From Tubulanus polymorphus (lineage: Eukaryota > Animalia > Nemertea), in NCBI RefSeq assembly GCF_964204645.1, contig NC_134026.1, positions 7,091,950-7,155,949 of the forward strand: a stretch of DNA of 64,000 bases. The letters run 5' to 3'. Below the pieces are notes generated by a model that had not been told where the DNA came from, did no database searches, and saw only the letters and a program-made list of their open reading frames with translations. This document shows positions 6,101 to 50,700 of this stretch, piece by piece (positions within the stretch are counted from its first letter, which is position 1; every line of letters begins with the position of its first letter). The position numbers were made by a program, and so were the translations under genes.

Positions 6101-9100
6101 CAGTTTTATTTTCATGATATGTATTGTAGTTCTTGCTTCTTGTTCCTGTTGTAAATTAACTCGTAAATGATACTGAATGAAAATAAATTCTTAAAATTAA
6201 AATCTTCGAAATAGAAATTGTGGATAAAATTCGCAATGGACCAATGGGAGATGCTCCGGCATATCGGCCGGATATATCAGCTATCTATAGTAACGTATGG
6301 ACTAGTTTGATGGTGAACTGTTGGCACGAACATCCTGAATCCAGATATGACATGTCGGCAATAAAACGCACCGTCAAAGAAAATACAAAAGGACAGTAAG
6401 TTAAGAAGAAATCATTAACCGATTTTGAACCTAATAAATCAATCACATCGATCATGTATTCTCCTAATTTCTTGATATTATTGTAAATTGAATTATTGTG
6501 TAGAGGATTGAATATCATGGATCACATGTTAGCGATGATGGAAAAATACGCGAATAATTTAGAAGACATCGTCGAACAGAGAACGAGCGAGTTGATCGTA
6601 GAAAAGAAGAAAACGGACACGTTACTGTATAGAATGTTGCCAGAGTAAGTGAATGTTAGGTAGAACAGCAGGGAGGTGGGAGTGCTGGGTAGAGAGATAT
6701 CAGGCAATCAAAAATCCATAAGAACGATAACAATATAAATCGCCATTTTCTAATGAGTAACTGTTTGATAATACATACGTTTTCGGGATGATATTCCCTC
6801 ATCAGTTGAGGTCATTTCTTCTCATCAGGTGAGGTGATATCCTCTCATCAGGCGAGGTGATATCCCCTCATCAGGCGAGGTGATATCCCCTCATCCGGTG
6901 AGATGATACCCCCTCATCAGGCGAGGTGATATTCCCTCACCAGGCGATGTAATATACCCGACAAGTTAGGTGTTATGCCCTCATCTGGTGAGGTGTTATC
7001 CCCTCATCAGGTGAGGTGATATCCGCTCATCAGGTGGGGTGATATCCTCTCATCAGGTGAGGTGATATTCCTTCATCAGGTGAAGATCTAATTTGATCTA
7101 TATGTATTTTACCTGATAAGGTGGATATCATCCCCAAAACGTTCGTGTCAGTAAACTGTTTTTCACTATTTTTCAACTAGTTTTCCCAGGCTTGTCGGAG
7201 TGATAGCTTGTTATCGTATATTTTCTTATCATTTTCAGAGTTGTTGCGGAGAAATTGAAACAAGGCGAAGAAATTCTACCCGAAATGTTTGAAATGGTGA
7301 CGATCTATTTCTCCGATATTGTCGGTTTCACGACGATATCGGCGAAAAGTTCTCCAGTTCAAGTCGTTAATTTACTCAATGATTTGTACACATTATTCGA
7401 TTCTATCATACAACAGTACGATGTCTATAAGGTAGGCCGCCAGACGGAAGATTGTTTACAAAAGCCGGAATCGAAATTTCTAATCATGCATTTCGATTTA
7501 TACAAATAGTTCTGTATATGCGACCGAAAATCCGACTATACCTGTCGATTTCCGATTTCAAAATCAAACCCCTATTTCGTTCCTATTAGGTGGCGTGGGT
7601 TTGTAAGGTATACGCGCAAAATGAATAAGGGGGCTATCTTTTCTAAGTTCAGAACCGCACCCAAAATCCCTTCAACCTAACAAACCTGTGGGCTTATTGA
7701 ATTCGGTGTGATAAGCGGGTGATTATCATTAGAAACTAATCATCGTTTTGCCCGATAAAACTGAACTATTATCCGCAATCTTGGAAACGTATAAAATGAG
7801 CTCTCTTAACGGGTGTTCCCTTCCATTTCATTATAAGAGGTTTATAGTTCGGTATTGTGGAGCTTTAGAGAGCTCTCTTGGTTGTAATGGGATACAGTGT
7901 TTATAGTGACAGAGAGGTATTTGGAGAGGTCGCACAGAATTACGTAGTAGAGTTTAAGAAGCCCCTCAATATGAGAGATCGTGTTCCCAGTTTGACAGTT
8001 CTCATTAGGTTTGACTTGAAGGTTCATTCCAGACTTGGTTTTTATCTAGAAATAGGCCCTAATTACAATAATGGCAAGGGTTCATCTAGTACAAGTTTGA
8101 TACCCCCTCCGCCCTTCATCTAATTCAAACCTAGTGAACTCGACAGATTCAGTTGAACTGTGGAAGTGGATCCAGCTAAACTGCGGAAATCTAGTTGAAC
8201 TGTGGAGAAGTGGATCCAGTTAAACTGTGGAAATGTAGTTGAACTGTGGAAGTGGATCCAGTGAAACTTTGGAAGTGGATAAAGTTGATTAAATGATTTT
8301 CTCCCATCGCTCGCAAACCCACCAGTCACACATCAAAGGGGGTTTGATTTTGAAATGGGAAATGTATATAAAGATGGATGTTCGGCCGAGAAATAGTGCA
8401 ATTCACTCCAAAAACCAGCTTCATGAAAACGTTATAACATCTCTTGTTAAATTGTTATATCGGTTACTTCATGTTTGAGAGCAAAAATTCTTAACCTTTA
8501 GTCTTAAACTTCTCCATTAAACAGGGGAAATTTTGAATGACGTGTTCACGTAATGAATTTGTGTACTCCATAGGTAGAGACTATAGGCGACGCGTATATG
8601 GTGGTTAGTGGTTTACCGAAACGAAATGGTAACAGACACGCCGGTCAGATCGCCGATATGGCTCTAAGTTTACTGTCATCCGTATTAACATTTACAATAC
8701 GACACATGCCAAAAGTACAGTTACAAGTCCGCATTGGTCTCCACACTGGATCGTGTTGCGCTGGTACGTAATGGAATTAACTGATGAGAAATGCGTTGAA
8801 TTCGATGAGAGACCAGGCGGGGCCAGTTGCACAGTCGTTGATCAAATTTCACACCGATCTAAAGACCGTCTTAGTTCTATTACCTGTTCTTACCAAACAA
8901 ATTGTACGTTAAATTTGACTGAAGTCTCGAGTTGTTGGCGAGGCCCTCAAAGACCGCAAAAATCTAAGGCAAATTTAGTTCTATAACCAATCAAACAATC
9001 TAAGACTAGTCTAAGCCCATTTTGGTTCTATAGTCAATGTAACAACTTATGATCAATATAAGCTTATTTCGGTTCTAAAAACAGTCTAATAACTTAAGAT

Positions 9101-21905: not shown

Positions 21906-24900
21906 TTATGATAAATCGATCGATAGTTGGGCTGATTGGCTGCGAGCTCTGTCGTGAACTTCAGACGTTCTCAAGGTCACGCCGAATATATCTTCATGAA
22001 AACGTCCATTATCCTGCGTAAAAACAAGAGAATTTACATTTTCAAAGTTACCCGGTATCCATGCTGAGAATACTTCAGGGTCCGTATTACGAAAAAGCTA
22101 AACTGTTTAATTTCCTGTTGGCTTAATTGCTTTGGTTTCTTAAAATTGTCAATGAGGACAATGATAAAAACTTTCAGACCGATTTCAGTATTATTAGTCC
22201 CATTAGAACATGCAGTTGATATCGTTTACACTTTTATCAAAAATGCATAAAGAAATTTAGGTATTTTTGCTTTTATGGATTTTCAGATAGAGTTGTACAA
22301 GAGCCTGTGTAAACCTGGTGTCGATTCAGTAAAATGAGACGGATTGTTCTTTGAAGGTAAGACGTATTCAGAGTACGAGAGCCTATGGGTAAATGAAGGG
22401 GTAATTTAGCGGATGAAGCTAATACGTATGTTGGACGAGTAGCAAAGGCTTATACTCTAAATTAATCTAGTTAACCTTCAAAGTACTATTTTTCTTACTA
22501 TTTACGTTTTATACATTTCCAGTTAAATTCTAATGGTATCAAAAATATAGTTATCAGAAGGAGTGGACACTGAAACATGAATGGACTATCCAGGGTGAAT
22601 TTAGTACTATCTGCTTACTCGCATATTCAATACGTAAGCCTTGGCCGCTTCGTTTGTCATATTGCCTTCTGATTGGATGATAAGTTCCAAGGTCGTTGTG
22701 ACGTCGGCCGCCATGGATACGTCACCGCAGACGTAAAAATGCCCGCCATTTTTGTGAATTGTTTTATAGATATTGGGTGCATTTCTCTTCAGGAGATGTT
22801 GTACATAGGTCTGAAATAAAAGAAAATAGGTCCGAGTTGAAAATATAGGTCAAAATACAAAAATTGTTATAGAAAATGGAAACACGACCTATCCCGACAG
22901 ATGGTTCGACTAAAATCGGCGTTACATAAGTCAAGGTTTTCATTGAACGTCCCTCATATCTAATATAAACAAAATGCTTGCAATTTTTTCATAGTGTTCA
23001 CTTTTCATAAGGGTAGACATGAATATGAGTATATGACACGACGACTTTGAAACTTAATTCACCTAAAATCTACAATCAAGTAAACAAATAACTGGACGAT
23101 GAAGAATGTTCTAAATGAGTAATCGAACGAACCTTTGGGATTCCGACCTCTCTGGATAGAGCGATGTGAACTGCATGAAGACTCTCTGTAGTAAGCGCAT
23201 TATCCGTTTCATCTTTAAACAATAAATCTACCGTTGATTGTCGACATCCGAAATATAACTCATAGTTCCCCCAACTCGAAGAATCTGCAACAATATAGTC
23301 AGATGTAATCATGAGAATTGAGAGTCCGATATGTTGAACAATGAAAGCATAGGCTTATAGAGGTGAAACGGGTAAGATGGGGATATGGGGGATGGGGAAG
23401 AGGGCTAGGGGTAGATTTGAGAGTAGGTGGAGGGATGGAGAGACAATAAGCAAAGACGAGGGTTGGTAATAGGAAAGATGGAGAGGGAAAGTGGGAAAGG
23501 GAGAGTGAAAAGAGGAGACGAGTGGGGGGAGAAAGAGATGGGGAGGAAAGTGAAAGGGAAAAGTAGGAGAGAGGAGGTTGTGAAGTAATACCTTCAATAT
23601 TGTTTCTATCGAATTCTCGTTGTTGCCAAAAACTTCTGAAAGGAGCGATACCGGTCCCCGGGCCGACCATTATTACCGGTCGACTGTGATCGTCTGGTAA
23701 ATGGAACGACGGAGCCCTGAAATAATACAACGAGTCAGACTGTAAAATGGTAAGACAATCTAAAAGAGAGTTAACTATTTTTTGATTGAAAGTCCTTTCA
23801 AGCCTTGGTTTTTGTGAAATTGATCCTGAAATGAAGAATTGTTTCTAAGCGTGTGGCGCCCTTGAAGGAAATCAGTTTTGAAAATGGCTAACAGAATTGA
23901 ATCTAAACGTCACTACTCTCTTAGTTCTAGAAATGGCTCATAGAATTGAGTCTCAACATCGGTACTCTCTTAGTTTTAAAAATGGTTCATAAAACTGAGT
24001 CTCAACACCACTACTATCGAATTGAGTCTAAACAATTGAGTCTAAACGTCACTGCTCTCTTAGTTCATAGTTGTTTTTTTTGATAATGATGATAATTTAT
24101 TTTCATTTAATTACGTTACACGATGAGGTTATTTTCACAGTTCGGAATAACTAGATGATCAAATTTTCCGAAGGTTTTTCTATTTGAAATAGAGACAGTC
24201 ACATGCCTATGGAAACTTTAACAACACTAAATGTCACTGATAATTGTTATACATATTTCATCTATATTTCGTATTTCTTTATTGTTTCATGTCTCCATCT
24301 TATTACTCATTGTCCTCTGAGACTGTTTGTCTGTGTCAGAATGTGTTAATTGTTGTTTGTCTCACTGTCATGTCACTACTCGTCACCTTTGTTTTTGTAT
24401 CATTTTCCATGTCTCAACCTGTCTGAATCTGTGTTATATAAATAGCTATGTGTAAAAATAAAGTCAGTTCCAGTTTTGGTATTCCAAACTGATAGTTCGC
24501 TCGTTACTCTTTCGCTCTGTTCCGGATTTCCGACGTCGACCATTCTTCGAGAATAGGACAGAAAATAGCGTTGCTAAATTGGTGTTAGAACCGGCGGGCA
24601 AGTTTTATATTCAACTGCCCGTATAAGATCCTGGTACCGCGCTCTCAACAGCTAGTTTTCCCCATCACGATGAATATTCTACCACCGGCAGTCGTAGTAA
24701 CCCTTCAAGAGGCTGGATACCACCAGGCACCTCAGAATTGGACTATTAATGCCGAGGAAGGATGTATCAAAGTTTCACTGACATGGACAGTCCAGTCATC
24801 GAAGCCATCGAAAGCGGTGAAATCGAAGTCTACTCTGAATCGGGACCGTAGACGTATGCAGGAATTCCTGAACCGAAGGATGCTGAAAACAGAAGTTCCG

Positions 24901-27900
24901 AAGTCAACGAAATCAGATAACGCTACCATGGACACAGCGGTCATGACTGTCAACGCGACTCATGATATAAGATCTCAGACAGTTGAGGACGTCATAACTA
25001 CCGCTGAAATAAAGAAATTGGAAGAAACTTCGCAGAAACTTTCAGGTGAACTTGTCGATTTGAAGGTCAATTTAGAATCAAAAGAAAGAACTATTATTGG
25101 ACAACAAAAAGAAATCTTTGGACTACAATCAAAATTGGATAAATTAAAAATGCGAAATTATCCTTGTCATTGCGCTAAAGATCCGAAAAACTCTCAAGCA
25201 TGCGAAGATACATTAACTGATATCGGTGATCTTTACGAAGCAGACCAACCGAAAATCATGGCTGCAAAACGATCAGGAATATTATATGAGGTCCGGGTGC
25301 AAGATCCAATCTCGAGAAAATACGCTGATTTCTTTGTGCACTGGGGACAATCATTATCATCAGTTTTCTATGACATTTTGAACAGATACGATTTGAATAT
25401 AAAATCATTCACCTATCGCGAACCAGATTCCAAAAATAAATGCTTGGACATTGATCGAAATACTTCATTGTGCTCGTTACATGAATCAGGAATCATCAAA
25501 CACTTATGGGATAAAAAGGGTAGAAATATAGTTTGGTTAGGAATGAGATTTTGATTAGCTTGTGAATGATCAATACTTTTAATTTGTATAAAAATAGTGT
25601 TCTCAAATTGATAATTCTTCATTAAATTCATTTCATCTAATTTTCGGGGACGAAAACTTTCAGAACGTAGTGGGGGAGGATTTAACAACACTAAATGTCA
25701 CTGATAATTGTTATACATATTTCATCTATATTTCGTATTTCTTTATTGTTTATGTCTCCATCTTATTACTCATTGTCCTCTGAGACTGTTTGTCTGTGTC
25801 AGAATGTGTTAATTGTTGTTTGTCTCACTGTCATGTCACTACTCGTCACCTTTGTTTTTGTATCATTTTCCATGTCTCAACCTGTCTGAATCTGTGTTAT
25901 ATAAATAGCTATGTGTAAAAATAAAGTCAGTTCCAGTTTTGGTATTCCAAACCGATAGTTCGCTCGTTACTCTTTCGCTCAATTCCGGATTTCCGACGTC
26001 GACCATTCTTCGAGAATAGGACAGAAAATAGCGTTGCTAAAAAACCACCTCGGATACCCGCGGTTCCCCGCTTTGCAGATCTCCAGTTGAGGAAACAGGG
26101 CGCAAGTTAAAGAGCAGCATCCTTGAACGATTCTGAAAGACGCTTGACATGCGCCCAGGAAGAACTGTGATTACTAGAATCTACTAAGGGCGATTCCGAA
26201 ACGAATGATGCAGCATTACAAGTTCCTTACCTCGGAATCAATTATGGCTAAATAGTTGAAAGGTTAACACACTGAATTGGCATGATAGAAGTTTTGGCTT
26301 TTTACTACGTTGCTGGTTGCTCTTCGGTTAAGGCTTCATTTAAACTGATGCTATTTTGACCTGTGCTTTCCCTGTATTGAACTGATTGATATTTTCCAAC
26401 CTTTTTTCAGATATTTTACCATAGAATATTTCACCATTTACTATGAATTCTTGTCCAACGTTTATTAATAGTTACGTTCATATTTTACACAATGATAAAC
26501 TTTCACAAAATCTGAGTAAATTGTGTTCAGATCATTACTTAATAAGATATTTCACCATTTACAATGAAATCTTGTACAACGAATATTCATGTCTGATTTA
26601 GTTACATTTGTATTTTGTATTTTATTATCATAAACTTTCAAAAATCTTATTGCATCAAATTTCTGAGAATTAATTTATCACTTGATGCAAAATATATATC
26701 TTACAAATGAATTGTAGCTGTAATAAAGACACAACTACGTTGAATTGATTTTCGAATACGCTACATGGTCAGTTCCAGAACATTCTCAGACAGCCAGCAC
26801 ACTCTCAGACAGTCAGCACACTCTCAGACAGAAGTGCATTCTCAGACAGTCAGTACACTCTCAGACAGACAGTACACGGTTAATCATCGTGAATCATGAA
26901 TTCAACTCAGATGCAAATTGGTCGAACTTATAACAGTTATATCATTTTGATGGGAATACCAAACAAGTCTGGAATCTACCGTACTGTGTCACTGGTCATT
27001 CTACCTGTCGTGTTCCTGTTTGGATCCTTTGGAAATGCAGCTACTTTCTGGATAATGATAAGTCGCAGATTTCGCAGTTTATCTTACGCTAACTATCTTA
27101 TTGCCTTGTCAGTCTGTGATTTCACGGTCTGTATCAATTATACATTGATGCCAGTTTTACAGTTTGTTCTCTTCCACGTCAATGGCGGTCCTATATTTAT
27201 CATGAATTCACTGGTCAGTTGTCAAATCTATGAATTTGTTATGATACTTGCATGCAGCAGCAGTTCGTGGTTTATAGTAGCAATATCTCTAGAACGTGCG
27301 GCAGTTGTGCTCTTCCCGTTTACATCTCGTTTGATATGTACACCGAAATTCGCTAGATTTGTTATATTGATAATTACTGCAGTGAATGCACTGGTTCTAT
27401 ATCTAAGCCCTGCTTTGTCACTACATTTTACTAATCGGCTTTTCGGTTGTTGCTATGAATTATTTGACCAAATAACATTTTTCTCCATATTTGTCACCCA
27501 AGTCTATATTATACCTTTAACCTTGATAATTACATCAAATACTCTAATAATAATTCAGTTATTCAGAGGTTCAAAAATAGTTTCGTCTGATCAGAAAAAT
27601 ACAAAATCAAAACGCACAACAATAATGCTTGTAACAGTTTCACTCGCATTTGCAATATTCACAATTCCAACCACTATTACTGTATTTCTAGCAATGGCTG
27701 AAGAAATAAAAAATTTTCTATATGACATATTTGTTCAGTTTCAAATGTGTAACTACGTGGTGAATTTTTACATATATCTTTTACTGGGACGAGAAATTCG
27801 CGAATATTTCTGTATGAAAGTCCGCTGTAGAAATTCTGTAAAGTAACCAGTGATTTCAATTCGACCACACCTAAATGGCAGACTAACTTACAAACTAGTA

Positions 27901-47723: not shown

Positions 47724-50700
47724 TTATAATTCAGTGTCTATATCCGCGCACGTTGTTTCCACGGATTGCGCTTTTTCAGCCAAAAACGGTATGTACTCTT
47801 TTTGAATAGCGTGTTGTCTGGAAAGCGGCCGAGTTGCCACCGCCGGATTCTTCCTGCTGTTCGCCGTCGACTTTTCTTCGCTCAAAAGCGCGTCTTCCGC
47901 GTACCCGCCGTGATCGTGATGCAGAGTTGACCCGTTTCTTTCGCAGCGAGTTGTCTCCGTAACACTGATGCTACGACCGGGAGTTTTACCGGAGATTCCG
48001 CCGACTGTTTTACCTTTAGGGGTCGGCTTCACGCACGGTAACCAGCGGAACACGAATTTGAAACCTTCGCGAAATCTGTAAAAAATACTATCATACCAAT
48101 GACTGATAAACACTGTTGTAGGTAGTAGGGGAGACCGGGACACATTGGGCCACCATAAATCCTCCACCACAGCTGCAACAACGTCCCCGCTCCACCACCT
48201 TGCTATACTACCGTTGTATCAGCACTAGCCGAGATCACACAGAGACGTTTTGGTCTGGGCCAAATTGGCACGGATCAGGCTCGAGCCAAATTTGGCCCGT
48301 GCCTAATTAGAGAGCGTTAACGCGTACGACACTCGATAGTAAACAAGGCTCAAACATAGCGAAGTGGGTCATTTACGGAACAAGGTGCAATTCAAACGCA
48401 ATCATTTTGTCCTCTGCTAAGATTTGGCTCGGGCCTGGTACGCCATTTTTGGTTGGGCCAGACAGGCACGGGCCCCATGGCACCCGTGTGCACAGCTGTT
48501 CCGGGCCAAATTTGGCCCGGGCCAAAACGCTCGTAGGATCGCGACTTATATATCCTAATAGACATAGACATTTTCGGTAATACGGACGAACACATTTTTC
48601 TATTTCACATGTATAGTGTGGTATTGTCAGTCGAAAATGTTTTCTTTTTATTCAACGATTCGGCTATGTCGTTATATCATCCCTTAATTAAGACGACTAT
48701 TATAGGATAAAGTTGAAACGTTGAATAAACTGCTAACATTTTTCATTCTCGTATAGGTATAGGTTGGATTTAATACCATCTTTTACGACACATACTCCGA
48801 GCGTTTCATCAATGATTTAATGTAGTAGTGCAGAATGTTACGAGTAATTGTCGCGATGAAAAATTCATAGACTTTAGACTATTTTCCACCTACCTGGAGT
48901 TCATCCAGCAATAAATGAACGGGTTGTACATGGAATTACTCATAGCGATCCAGTAAATGACCAGATAGATGTACTGCGAATGTTGCTGTACTGTGATCGA
49001 CGGTTTGACAGTCGTTATAACGAAATATAAGTGTTGAGGCAACCAACAAATGGCGAATAGAAACACAACGACTATCAACATTTTAACAACCTGGAAAATT
49101 GAGAGAAAGAGAGAGAGTGGTTGAATATTAGAAATCGTCGGATTTCTAGATGTCACGAGACACAACAGAAATTGTGAAATATATAAACTACGATGCAGAA
49201 CAATTTACAATTTCACAATTTTCCGTTGTATCTCAGCAATCCTGAAGATGACTATCAGTTTATAGTCGAAAGTTGAATAAAACTACCAGCTCAAGGAAAC
49301 ATATTCGGTTATTTGTTTCTTATGGTGGCTGATAAGGGCCATAGCGTAAAATTCCTGGTATGTAAATGAGGGCGCCAGAACGCCAGAACGCCAAAACGAA
49401 AAAAAACGTCCAAATTTCTCTAAAAGTATATATAACAGTAGTTTATAGTTTCTATAACAGTATTTACTAGATCTTAACTCATGTAGGGCCGAGGATCCAA
49501 ATCTCAGGGTTAAATTTCAGTTGAAATTAGAGCATTTTCAATGCTTTTGTTCTAGAGCCGAATATTATTATTAATTATGGTGGCCGTTTTTCGTTGTTTT
49601 GGCGGGGGCGCCAAAACGAAAGTTCGTTTTGGCGGGGGCGCCAAAATGAAAGTTCGTTTTGGCGGGGGCGCCAAAATGGAATTTTCTCCATTTTGGCGCG
49701 CAAAAACGAACTTTCAGAGAAAATTGGACGTTTTTCGTTGTTTTGGCGGGCGCGCCAAAATGAAAGTTCGTTTTGGCGGGCGCGCCAAAACGAACTTTCA
49801 GAGAAAATTGGACGTTTTTAGTTGTTTTGGCGGGGGCGCCAAAACGAAAGTTCGTTTTGGCGGGGGCGCCAAAATGGAATTTTCTCCATTTTGGCGCGCA
49901 AAAACGAACTTTCAGAGAAAATTGGACGTTTTTCGTTGTTTTGGCGGGCGTGCCAAAATGAAAGTTCGTTTTGGCGGGCGCGCCAAAACGAACTTTCAGA
50001 GAAAATTGGACGTTTTTAGTTGTTTTGGCGGGGGCGCCAAAACGAAAGTTCGTTTTGGCGGGCGCACCAAAACGGAATTTTCTTTGTTTTGGCGCGCCAA
50101 AACGAACTTTTAGAGAAAATTGGACGTTTTTTTCTCTTTGGCGTTCTGGCGTTCTGTCGCCCTCATTTACATACCAGGAATTTTACGCTATGGCCCATAT
50201 CAGCCACCATAGTTAATAATATTCGGCTCTAGAACAAAAGCATTGAAAATGCTCTAATTTCAACTGAAATTTAACCCTGAGATTTGGATCCTCGGCCCTA
50301 CATGAGTTAAGATCTAGTAAATACTGTTATACATTGGACCTGCTTTGATAGACCTCTGGACCTAGTTCTTTTTGGTCCCGGGTCCACAGTTCTCCACAGT
50401 CCACAATCGACCAATCAGAATTTGACTGTGGAGTAAAAAACATAAAAACAAAATGTGCGTATCTCGTATTTTTTGATAAAGTCAGATTCTACAAATATCT
50501 TTGAGATTCGCTCGAGAACCGCGGTTCAATAGGAACCACTATTCCACGTCGGTTAAGTCTGACTGAGTAAAACTTAAGTTAAACTACTAAGTTCAGTGAA
50601 ACTCTACCGTCATCCAAATCATGGCTTACACTTTAAGTAAATCGAAATGGAAATAAACGAATCGGGACTAAAAAAATCGAGACGATTTCAATAATGTGAC

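Follow-up and report, generated by a model that had tools for sequence, protein, structure and literature searches.

How does a retrotransposon enter a genome when its long terminal repeats (LTRs) begin with TT and end with AA, given that integrases of the retroviral type are held to depend on an unchanging CA at the terminus? The question is raised by a short element in a 64,000-nucleotide stretch of the nemertean Tubulanus polymorphus (assembly GCF_964204645.1, contig NC_134026.1, positions 7,091,950 to 7,155,949 of the forward strand; hereafter the window). This element is a real, young, recently spread, multi-copy LTR element with TT...AA ends and without pol. Probably it is primed by tRNA-Ala and was inserted in trans by a Ty3/gypsy integrase of the same genome whose recognition of ends appears relaxed.

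Ends and structure of the window family

Bounded by its LTRs, the element occupies positions 24217-26041 (1825 bp) and carries AAAC on both flanks. The LTRs measure 362 bp (24217-24578) and 361 bp (25681-26041) and lie three substitutions and one indel apart; both open with TTTAACAAC and close with GTTGCTAAA. Examination of the open reading frame (ORF) and a Pfam search revealed no encoded reverse transcriptase (RT) or integrase. Paired LTRs, a short duplication, a primer site, a purine tract and dispersed copies mark it as a non-autonomous LTR retrotransposon, and the LTR lengths, the roughly four differences, the TATA box, the polyA signal, the polypurine tract and the AAAC duplication listed in a first-pass annotation were all found again on re-measurement.

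An LTR search of the 268-Mb, 77-contig genome returned 130 first-look candidates, of which 40 were scored and the best 30 fetched. All 40 scored candidates were positive and are spread over 11 contigs, so the repeat is due neither to chance nor to the plain local duplication that the first-pass annotation had named as a refuting case. Among the fetched loci, the best 30 of the 130 candidates, TTTAAC opens the LTR in 30/30 and GCTAAA closes it in 30/30. At these 30 loci, the tabulation of termini proposed in the annotation thereby gave TT..AA throughout, 4-bp duplications and no TG...CA copy, and its view that the end change predates insertion holds. On the joined strand, neither end has a CA among its terminal 10 bases. 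Nineteen of the 30 loci are solo LTRs, 17 of them with an exact 4-bp duplication; the other two represent a single duplicated locus with one mismatch in the 4-bp repeat, and duplications of 3, 5 or 6 bp were seen at none of the 19. Taken together, the 17 solo LTRs and four two-LTR copies supply 21 duplications with 19 distinct 4-mers.

In raw reads of a second sample (X5), clipping falls exactly at 24217 (121 reads), 24578 (112) and 26041 (225) and the flanking sequence is mixed, which fixes the boundaries of the element independently of the assembly; read depth over the LTR in this sample is about 25-50 times that of the unique flank. In contigs from run X1, which may be the source sample of the assembly, the flank has a depth of 38 and the junction piece one of 19; the contig piece covering the left flank ends at 24216. 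Depth and flank end indirectly suggest a heterozygous insertion with an empty allele, of which no joined read was seen. Two full copies (on C1 and C3) show one LTR-LTR difference each and older copies show many, a range which implies that the family has been mobile over a long period and also recently.

From left to right, the element in the window consists of the following features:

24213..24216, no strand: left target-site duplication AAAC, its 4-bp length being the family rule
24217..24578, plus strand: 5' LTR, TTTAAC...GCTAAA, both ends marked by read clipping
24435, plus strand: TATA-like box TATATAAAT in the 5' LTR, from sequence
24457, plus strand: polyA signal AATAAA in the 5' LTR, from sequence
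24580..24600, plus strand: primer-binding site, a bulged match to the tRNA-Ala(AGC) 3' end, separated from the LTR by a single T (24579)
24670..25554, plus strand: 294-residue ORF without a detected sequence homologue, under purifying selection between subfamilies
25000..25155, plus strand: predicted long helix or coiled coil, residues about 111-162, from a single-sequence model and weak Pfam coiled-coil matches
25282..25548, plus strand: predicted ubiquitin-like beta-grasp domain without a terminal Gly-Gly, mean predicted local distance difference test score (pLDDT) 67.9
25667..25680, plus strand: polypurine tract ending GGGGGAGGA and adjoining the 3' LTR, from sequence
25681..26041, plus strand: 3' LTR, TTTAAC...GCTAAA, with read clipping at 26041
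26042..26045, no strand: right target-site duplication AAAC, from sequence

The primer site of the window copy, TGGTGTTAGAACCGGCGGGCA, had been called tRNA-Leu-type; it proved to be of the tRNA-Ala(AGC) type. In a sister copy on C3 (L005/L032) the site is an exact 18/18 complement of tRNA-Ala(AGC) plus CCA, this tRNA end has 25 exact matches in the genome as against none in a reversed control, and ARAGORN predicts tRNA-Ala at 7 of 10 fetched tRNA-end loci. The leucine primer was dropped in favour of alanine; its own fit was left unscored, and no Leu gene was found among the fetched tRNAs. The window copy and the C3 sister (L005) differ at four positions within the primer site and at three across the other ~1080 internal bases. 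Reverse transcription copies primer sequence into the new DNA, and the concentration of differences in the primer site together with the exact tRNA match is what reverse transcription from a tRNA-Ala primer would be expected to leave behind. Predicted RNA structure around the site is no stronger than in shuffled sequences (z -0.30). Besides these sites, 5'-truncated tRNA-Ala copies with CCA ends (L218, L220, L221) are likely reverse-transcribed mature tRNA, and a pol-coding element at C3:18840766 (L241) has a bulged tRNA-Ala primer site resembling that of the window copy.

The insertion lies in an intron of a minus-strand nitric oxide synthase gene, to which the element is antisense; NO_synthase and NAD-binding exons flank it, and a PDZ exon was also detected in the gene. 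The same intron region holds, on the opposite strand to that gene, a single-exon rhodopsin-type G-protein-coupled receptor gene (26893-27846, plus strand). Elsewhere in the window, exons at 47724-49204 (minus strand) and 7207-7509 (plus strand) resemble by eye a tachykinin-type receptor and a guanylate cyclase.

Candidate helpers and their integrases

The last eight bases of the purine tract recur in a pol/env element at C9:9202960, directly before its 3' LTR; the pattern search itself was at background (18 matches versus 29 in the control) and served solely as a lead to this element. The C9 element contains gag, protease, RT, RNase H and integrase in that order (PR-RT-RH-IN), and env pieces, has the ends TTTAAC...GTTAAA and an ATAT duplication, and is broken by stops and a nested insertion. 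A search with its integrase gave 129 scored matches, from which 40 integrase-bearing elements (30 nearest-type, 10 distant) were examined. Their ends were resolved in 28, one through the 3' LTR only and one through the position of primer site and purine tract plus a relative; C7:11429873 was scored TA..TA on a relative of its family with TA..TA ends and a GCAG duplication. The 28 comprise 12 elements with TG..CA, six with TT..AA, five with TA..CA, four with TA..TA and one with TA..AA.

Pol-encoding copies with the same ends, for which the first-pass annotation had suggested a search, accordingly exist: six Ty3/gypsy copies from three families (C9; C8/C12/C18; C10/C3), five of them with a perfect 4-bp duplication. 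Pol-coding elements with these ends also have the tRNA-Ala primer site of the window element and a purine tract much like its own, and some of the examined pol copies have uninterrupted frames and LTRs more than 99% identical. According to Pfam, the ORFs of the helper copy L149 encode gag and then pol in PR-RT-RH-IN order with an rve integrase, and helper env matches Baculo_F (E 7e-10). Env-like matches were found in four of the six copies and in none of the C10/C3 family, so two of the three families have an F-type env. At the level of nucleotides, the tips of the window LTR recur in each of the three TT..AA families: 13 of the first 14 bases of the window LTR equal the C8 family and its last 10 equal the C10 family, while subfamily B of the window element has the 54 nucleotides after the LTR in common with the C9 element at 88.9% identity. 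The proposal of mobilisation in trans stands in that the element is without pol and same-ended elements with pol are present. The three families, which have ends and primer in common with the element, are candidate helpers of which none is singly proven; that their integrases tolerate AA-3' ends is inferred.

In the integrase tree, the six TT..AA copies form one branch (support 90/88, unstarred) inside a 28-row clade (100/100, starred) that holds five end types: TG..CA, TA..CA, TA..TA, TA..AA and TT..AA. Non-canonical ends occur in 15 of the 19 resolved elements inside the clade versus one of nine outside, and at least four changes at each end are needed across the tree of 28 elements. Grouping TA..AA with TT..AA, a group named after the tree was seen, was rejected (approximately unbiased test, p-AU 8.8e-12), so AA either arose twice or LTRs were swapped. 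The outermost T...A is constant in all resolved ends and the second base alone varies. As there are relatives with TA..CA and TA..AA, ends can change one at a time; the matched change at both ends, which the annotation had put forward, is no rule of the system. On these sequences, end recognition in the clade appears to be relaxed at the second base.

At the third residue ahead of the catalytic Glu, 27/27 scorable integrases of the clade have Ser or Ala, and 12/12 outgroup integrases have Gly. The position aligns with a Gly of Ty3 and with Gly218 of the foamy virus PFV, which presumably contacts the base paired to the invariant C. In the PFV enzyme, the stretch Pro214-Gly218 pushes in between the two strands where the viral DNA ends (PMC6784120). 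The change from Gly to Ser/Ala is a lead, not a result, as a candidate cause of the relaxed ends.

For insertion in trans, the RNA of the mini element would be taken into particles of helper Gag, and helper RT would copy it from the tRNA-Ala primer. The helper integrase would then trim the single base between LTR and primer site and join the AA-3' ends with a 4-bp stagger, Ser/Ala at the PFV-Gly218 position perhaps making the C of CA less necessary, with the terminal A retained. The element may have preserved its predicted coiled-coil and ubiquitin-like protein because this promotes the spread of the element itself, in the likeliest case by linking it to the particle of the helper as an adaptor.

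Several observations weigh against parts of this scheme. Likeness of the mini LTR to the helper families is confined to the tips, and among the candidates scored none combined this LTR with pol. Elements were sampled by likeness to one integrase, and the end statistics cover 28 of 40. Gly to Ser/Ala is a single event on the tree (one independent pair, p = 1). Four Ser-type copies of one family retain TG..CA and one Gly-type element has TA..CA; the residue is therefore neither sufficient nor strictly needed. In favour of the scheme stands a composite at C4:16522690-16530092, in which an end of a second mini family (see below), in inverted orientation, is joined to the U5, primer site, gag and an RT piece of the C8 family and these to purine tract, LTR, interior and LTR of the window family. 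TGAT bounds the composite on either side, and the RT piece meets the purine tract at a microhomology. This arrangement fits co-packaging and template switching but also a DNA-level rearrangement, and its 4-bp TGAT match can be chance.

In our view it is rather unlikely that the helper integrase has instead switched to taking AA-3' strictly, in co-evolution with the ends of its own element, the Gly to Ser/Ala change being irrelevant. Such a switch would agree with the invariant hexamers at the 30 fetched mini loci, with the single branch of TT..AA helpers and with the existence of Ser-type TG..CA elements. However, in the TA..CA and TA..AA elements, whose LTRs are nearly identical and whose duplications are perfect, a single integrase must accept two different ends, and the repeated changes across the tree also oppose a strict switch, an argument that applies to the clade as a whole and not to the TT..AA branch itself.

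Further observations concern the pol-coding relatives and their surroundings. In all six clade members checked (L149, L147, L152, L156, L160, L184), gag and pol lie in the same frame, split by a single TAG, a pattern that suggests stop-codon readthrough. The copy L147/L148 (C18:79500-98499) of a TT...AA helper family sits within a 118-bp satellite array, and C10-family copies (L271-L276, L269, L184) show short tandem repeats of LTR end and primer site. Within the C4 composite (L280, L116, L060), which unites three TT...AA families, there is in addition an insertion of 2.4 kb whose ends are inverted and which shows an apparent 9-bp duplication. The gypsy element nested in the C9 element (L113:5084-9915, L114) has a SCAN-like gag domain and its integrase before RT, an order that we take to be Gmr1-type. 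At L056:961-6004 (C9:4606000), an ORF cluster with an integrase and a packaging-ATPase-like frame resembles by eye a Polinton-like element.

The 294-residue ORF and a second mini family

The first-pass annotation had described a mini element mobilised by an autonomous partner and had missed its ORF; the absence of pol was upheld, and the interior is not empty cargo, as it contains a 294-residue frame under selection. Three young copies have the frame intact, and it can be recognised at 33-66% identity in several subfamilies. Across five divergent copies, the proportion of synonymous differences (pS) is 0.67-0.79 versus 0.23-0.41 for non-synonymous ones (pN), and third positions changed most. 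The low pN relative to pS between subfamilies indicates that the ORF has been kept by selection; near-identical copies carry little such signal. Neither a single-protein nor a 7-row alignment search, both restricted to similar lengths, found a homologue. The sole match among 1.84 billion representatives, a bacterial repeat protein, was dismissed as chance, and an Atlas comparison reached lead level only (best score 0.82).

The whole ORF folds poorly from a single sequence (pLDDT 45), the long middle helix being the only confident part. For the last 90 residues, the best of five models (pLDDT 67.9) is a beta-grasp (beta-beta-alpha-beta-beta-alpha-beta) that matches 7mrj_B with Z 8.2 and a root-mean-square deviation of 1.7 A over 70 residues; Z reaches 8.3 overall, and nearly all of the top 50 structural matches are ubiquitin/SUMO-like. 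The protein ends in LGMRF, and the Gly-Gly conjugation tail is absent. With moderate model confidence, the C-terminus is thus predicted to be a ubiquitin-like domain. Caution comes from the facts that a single model of five exceeds pLDDT 60, that no Pfam match was obtained for the C-terminus and no Foldseek match at E <= 0.001 (best E 1.3e-3), and that Z values near 8 are close to the tool's 'common' level. The product would most likely be an adaptor or counter-defence protein that aids the satellite.

A second mini family with TT...AA ends appears to be of similar build. Its members are 2.6 kb long, with 401-bp LTRs (identical in one copy), TTTAGC...GTTAAA ends and a tRNA-Ala site, and two of four two-LTR copies have a 4-bp duplication. 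The encoded protein is zinc-knuckle-like and coiled-coil; homologue and Pfam searches returned no homologue and no domain, and the neighbours returned for its C-terminus, no more than a lead (0.80-0.87), belong to the ubiquitin clan. Profile comparison of the C-termini of both families gave a probability of 1.1%, leaving common ancestry unsupported. Loci of this family are L297 (C9:4704000-4712500), L298, L299, L300 and L301. Possibly, though this is doubtful, such elements are a satellite class parasitising an invertebrate endogenous-retrovirus clade by means of cis signals and one selected protein that docks to the particle or shields from the host, a single change in the active-site loop of the integrase having ended the CA-3' rule and left an end series from TG..CA to TT..AA.

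The ORF also bears on an improbable origin, in which an autonomous element with this LTR, absent from the assembly or unscored, gave rise to the present one by internal deletion and the ORF is a former accessory gene of that ancestor. Scoring covered 40 of 130 LTR and 150 of 1416 integrase candidates, and the 54 internal bases that subfamily B has in common with the C9 pol/env element would suit such a descent. Yet this LTR stands on a gag-pol interior at none of the 30 LTR loci, 24 ORF, 18 purine-tract and 30 fetched primer-site matches, and in about 90 stretches that surround pol elements the ORF has no counterpart apart from the mini copies themselves. Moreover, synonymous sites are saturated between subfamilies yet the frame is kept, which argues for a long life in the short form. 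That the ends came about by another route, namely shifted cleavage near a hidden CA, a tyrosine recombinase of the DIRS/Ngaro type or local duplication, is extremely improbable: DIRS-type elements do have T-rich ends, but they use a tyrosine recombinase in place of a DDE integrase and leave no varied staggered-cut duplication, whereas here 21 sites bear varied 4-bp duplications, the signature of a staggered cut, the terminal 10 bases are free of CA, primer site and purine tract are present, same-ended pol elements encode an rve integrase and copies occupy 11 contigs. Insertion in trans by a relaxed-end helper integrase remains our preferred explanation.

Comparison with known systems

Ends other than TG..CA are already documented in plants, in fly errantiviruses and in automated calls from an annelid. 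The plant cases (Tos17, AtRE1, TARE1, lotus Copia and Rosaceae TGTT/AACA) resemble ours, as far as the accessible texts go, in stable mobile ends, mixed types per integrase branch and non-autonomous members; they are mostly Copia, and the second base in lotus is always a purine, with AA-3' not tabulated, whereas here the elements are Gypsy, animal and TT..AA (10.1101/137141, PMC9804982, PMC5659011). The string 'TTAA' is absent from the portions of these three texts that were covered, the bioRxiv supplement not being among them. The Drosophila elements gypsy, ZAM and Idefix, which are env-carrying gypsy elements, likewise depart from the TG..CA rule with AGT...AnT ends; judged from parts of PMC5408687 and PMC3601003, they alter the outermost base (A...T) and are target-specific, whereas in T. 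polymorphus T...A is constant and the 21 duplications reveal no fixed target. Automated calls in the annelid Lamellibrachia, also an invertebrate, include TACA, TATA, TGAA and TTAT motifs; in the part of PMC8220671 at hand, the list is without TTAA and without a family-level check or integrase link. As quoted in the same part of PMC8220671, the LTR_retriever motif library does not contain TT..AA, and annotations of invertebrates may for that reason pass over such families.

The helper families are like the ancient errantiviruses in having gag, a PR-RT-RH-IN pol, an F-type env, LTRs and a tRNA primer site, all within what the available text of PMC13524379 conveys; the window element differs from these in being without gag, pol and env. 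The main text of PMC13524379, so far as available, contains 'termini' twice and 'non-canonical' four times but neither 'target site' nor 'dinucleotide', and four primer motifs were unmatched in its supplements. Our literature search, to which Repbase and subscription papers were external and whose dotted phrases may miss spellings, found neither TT..AA ends nor a ubiquitin-fold ORF in a non-autonomous LTR element.

The reason for CA conservation in retrotransposons has been called poorly understood, in the accessible text of 10.1101/137141. One genome here offers a graded series of ends, the integrases and a candidate residue, and the series makes the question testable in vitro. Together with the selected orphan gene, the end series and the integrase lead lift the finding above an annotation curiosity.

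Close counterparts in design are the TRIMs, that is, miniature retrotransposons with terminal repeats, which likewise have two LTRs, a primer site, a purine tract, mobilisation in trans and, as in the animal Helenus, a 4-bp duplication (PMC10886601, available part). By the description given there, TRIMs measure less than 1000 bp and encode no mobilising proteins, whereas the window element has 1825 bp and a selected 294-residue ORF and thus falls outside the TRIM definition. It works like a TRIM-type non-autonomous LTR element beyond the size and non-coding limits of that class, and the two mini families, each with a kept gene that is neither gag nor pol, suggest that non-autonomous LTR elements can carry an accessory protein of their own.

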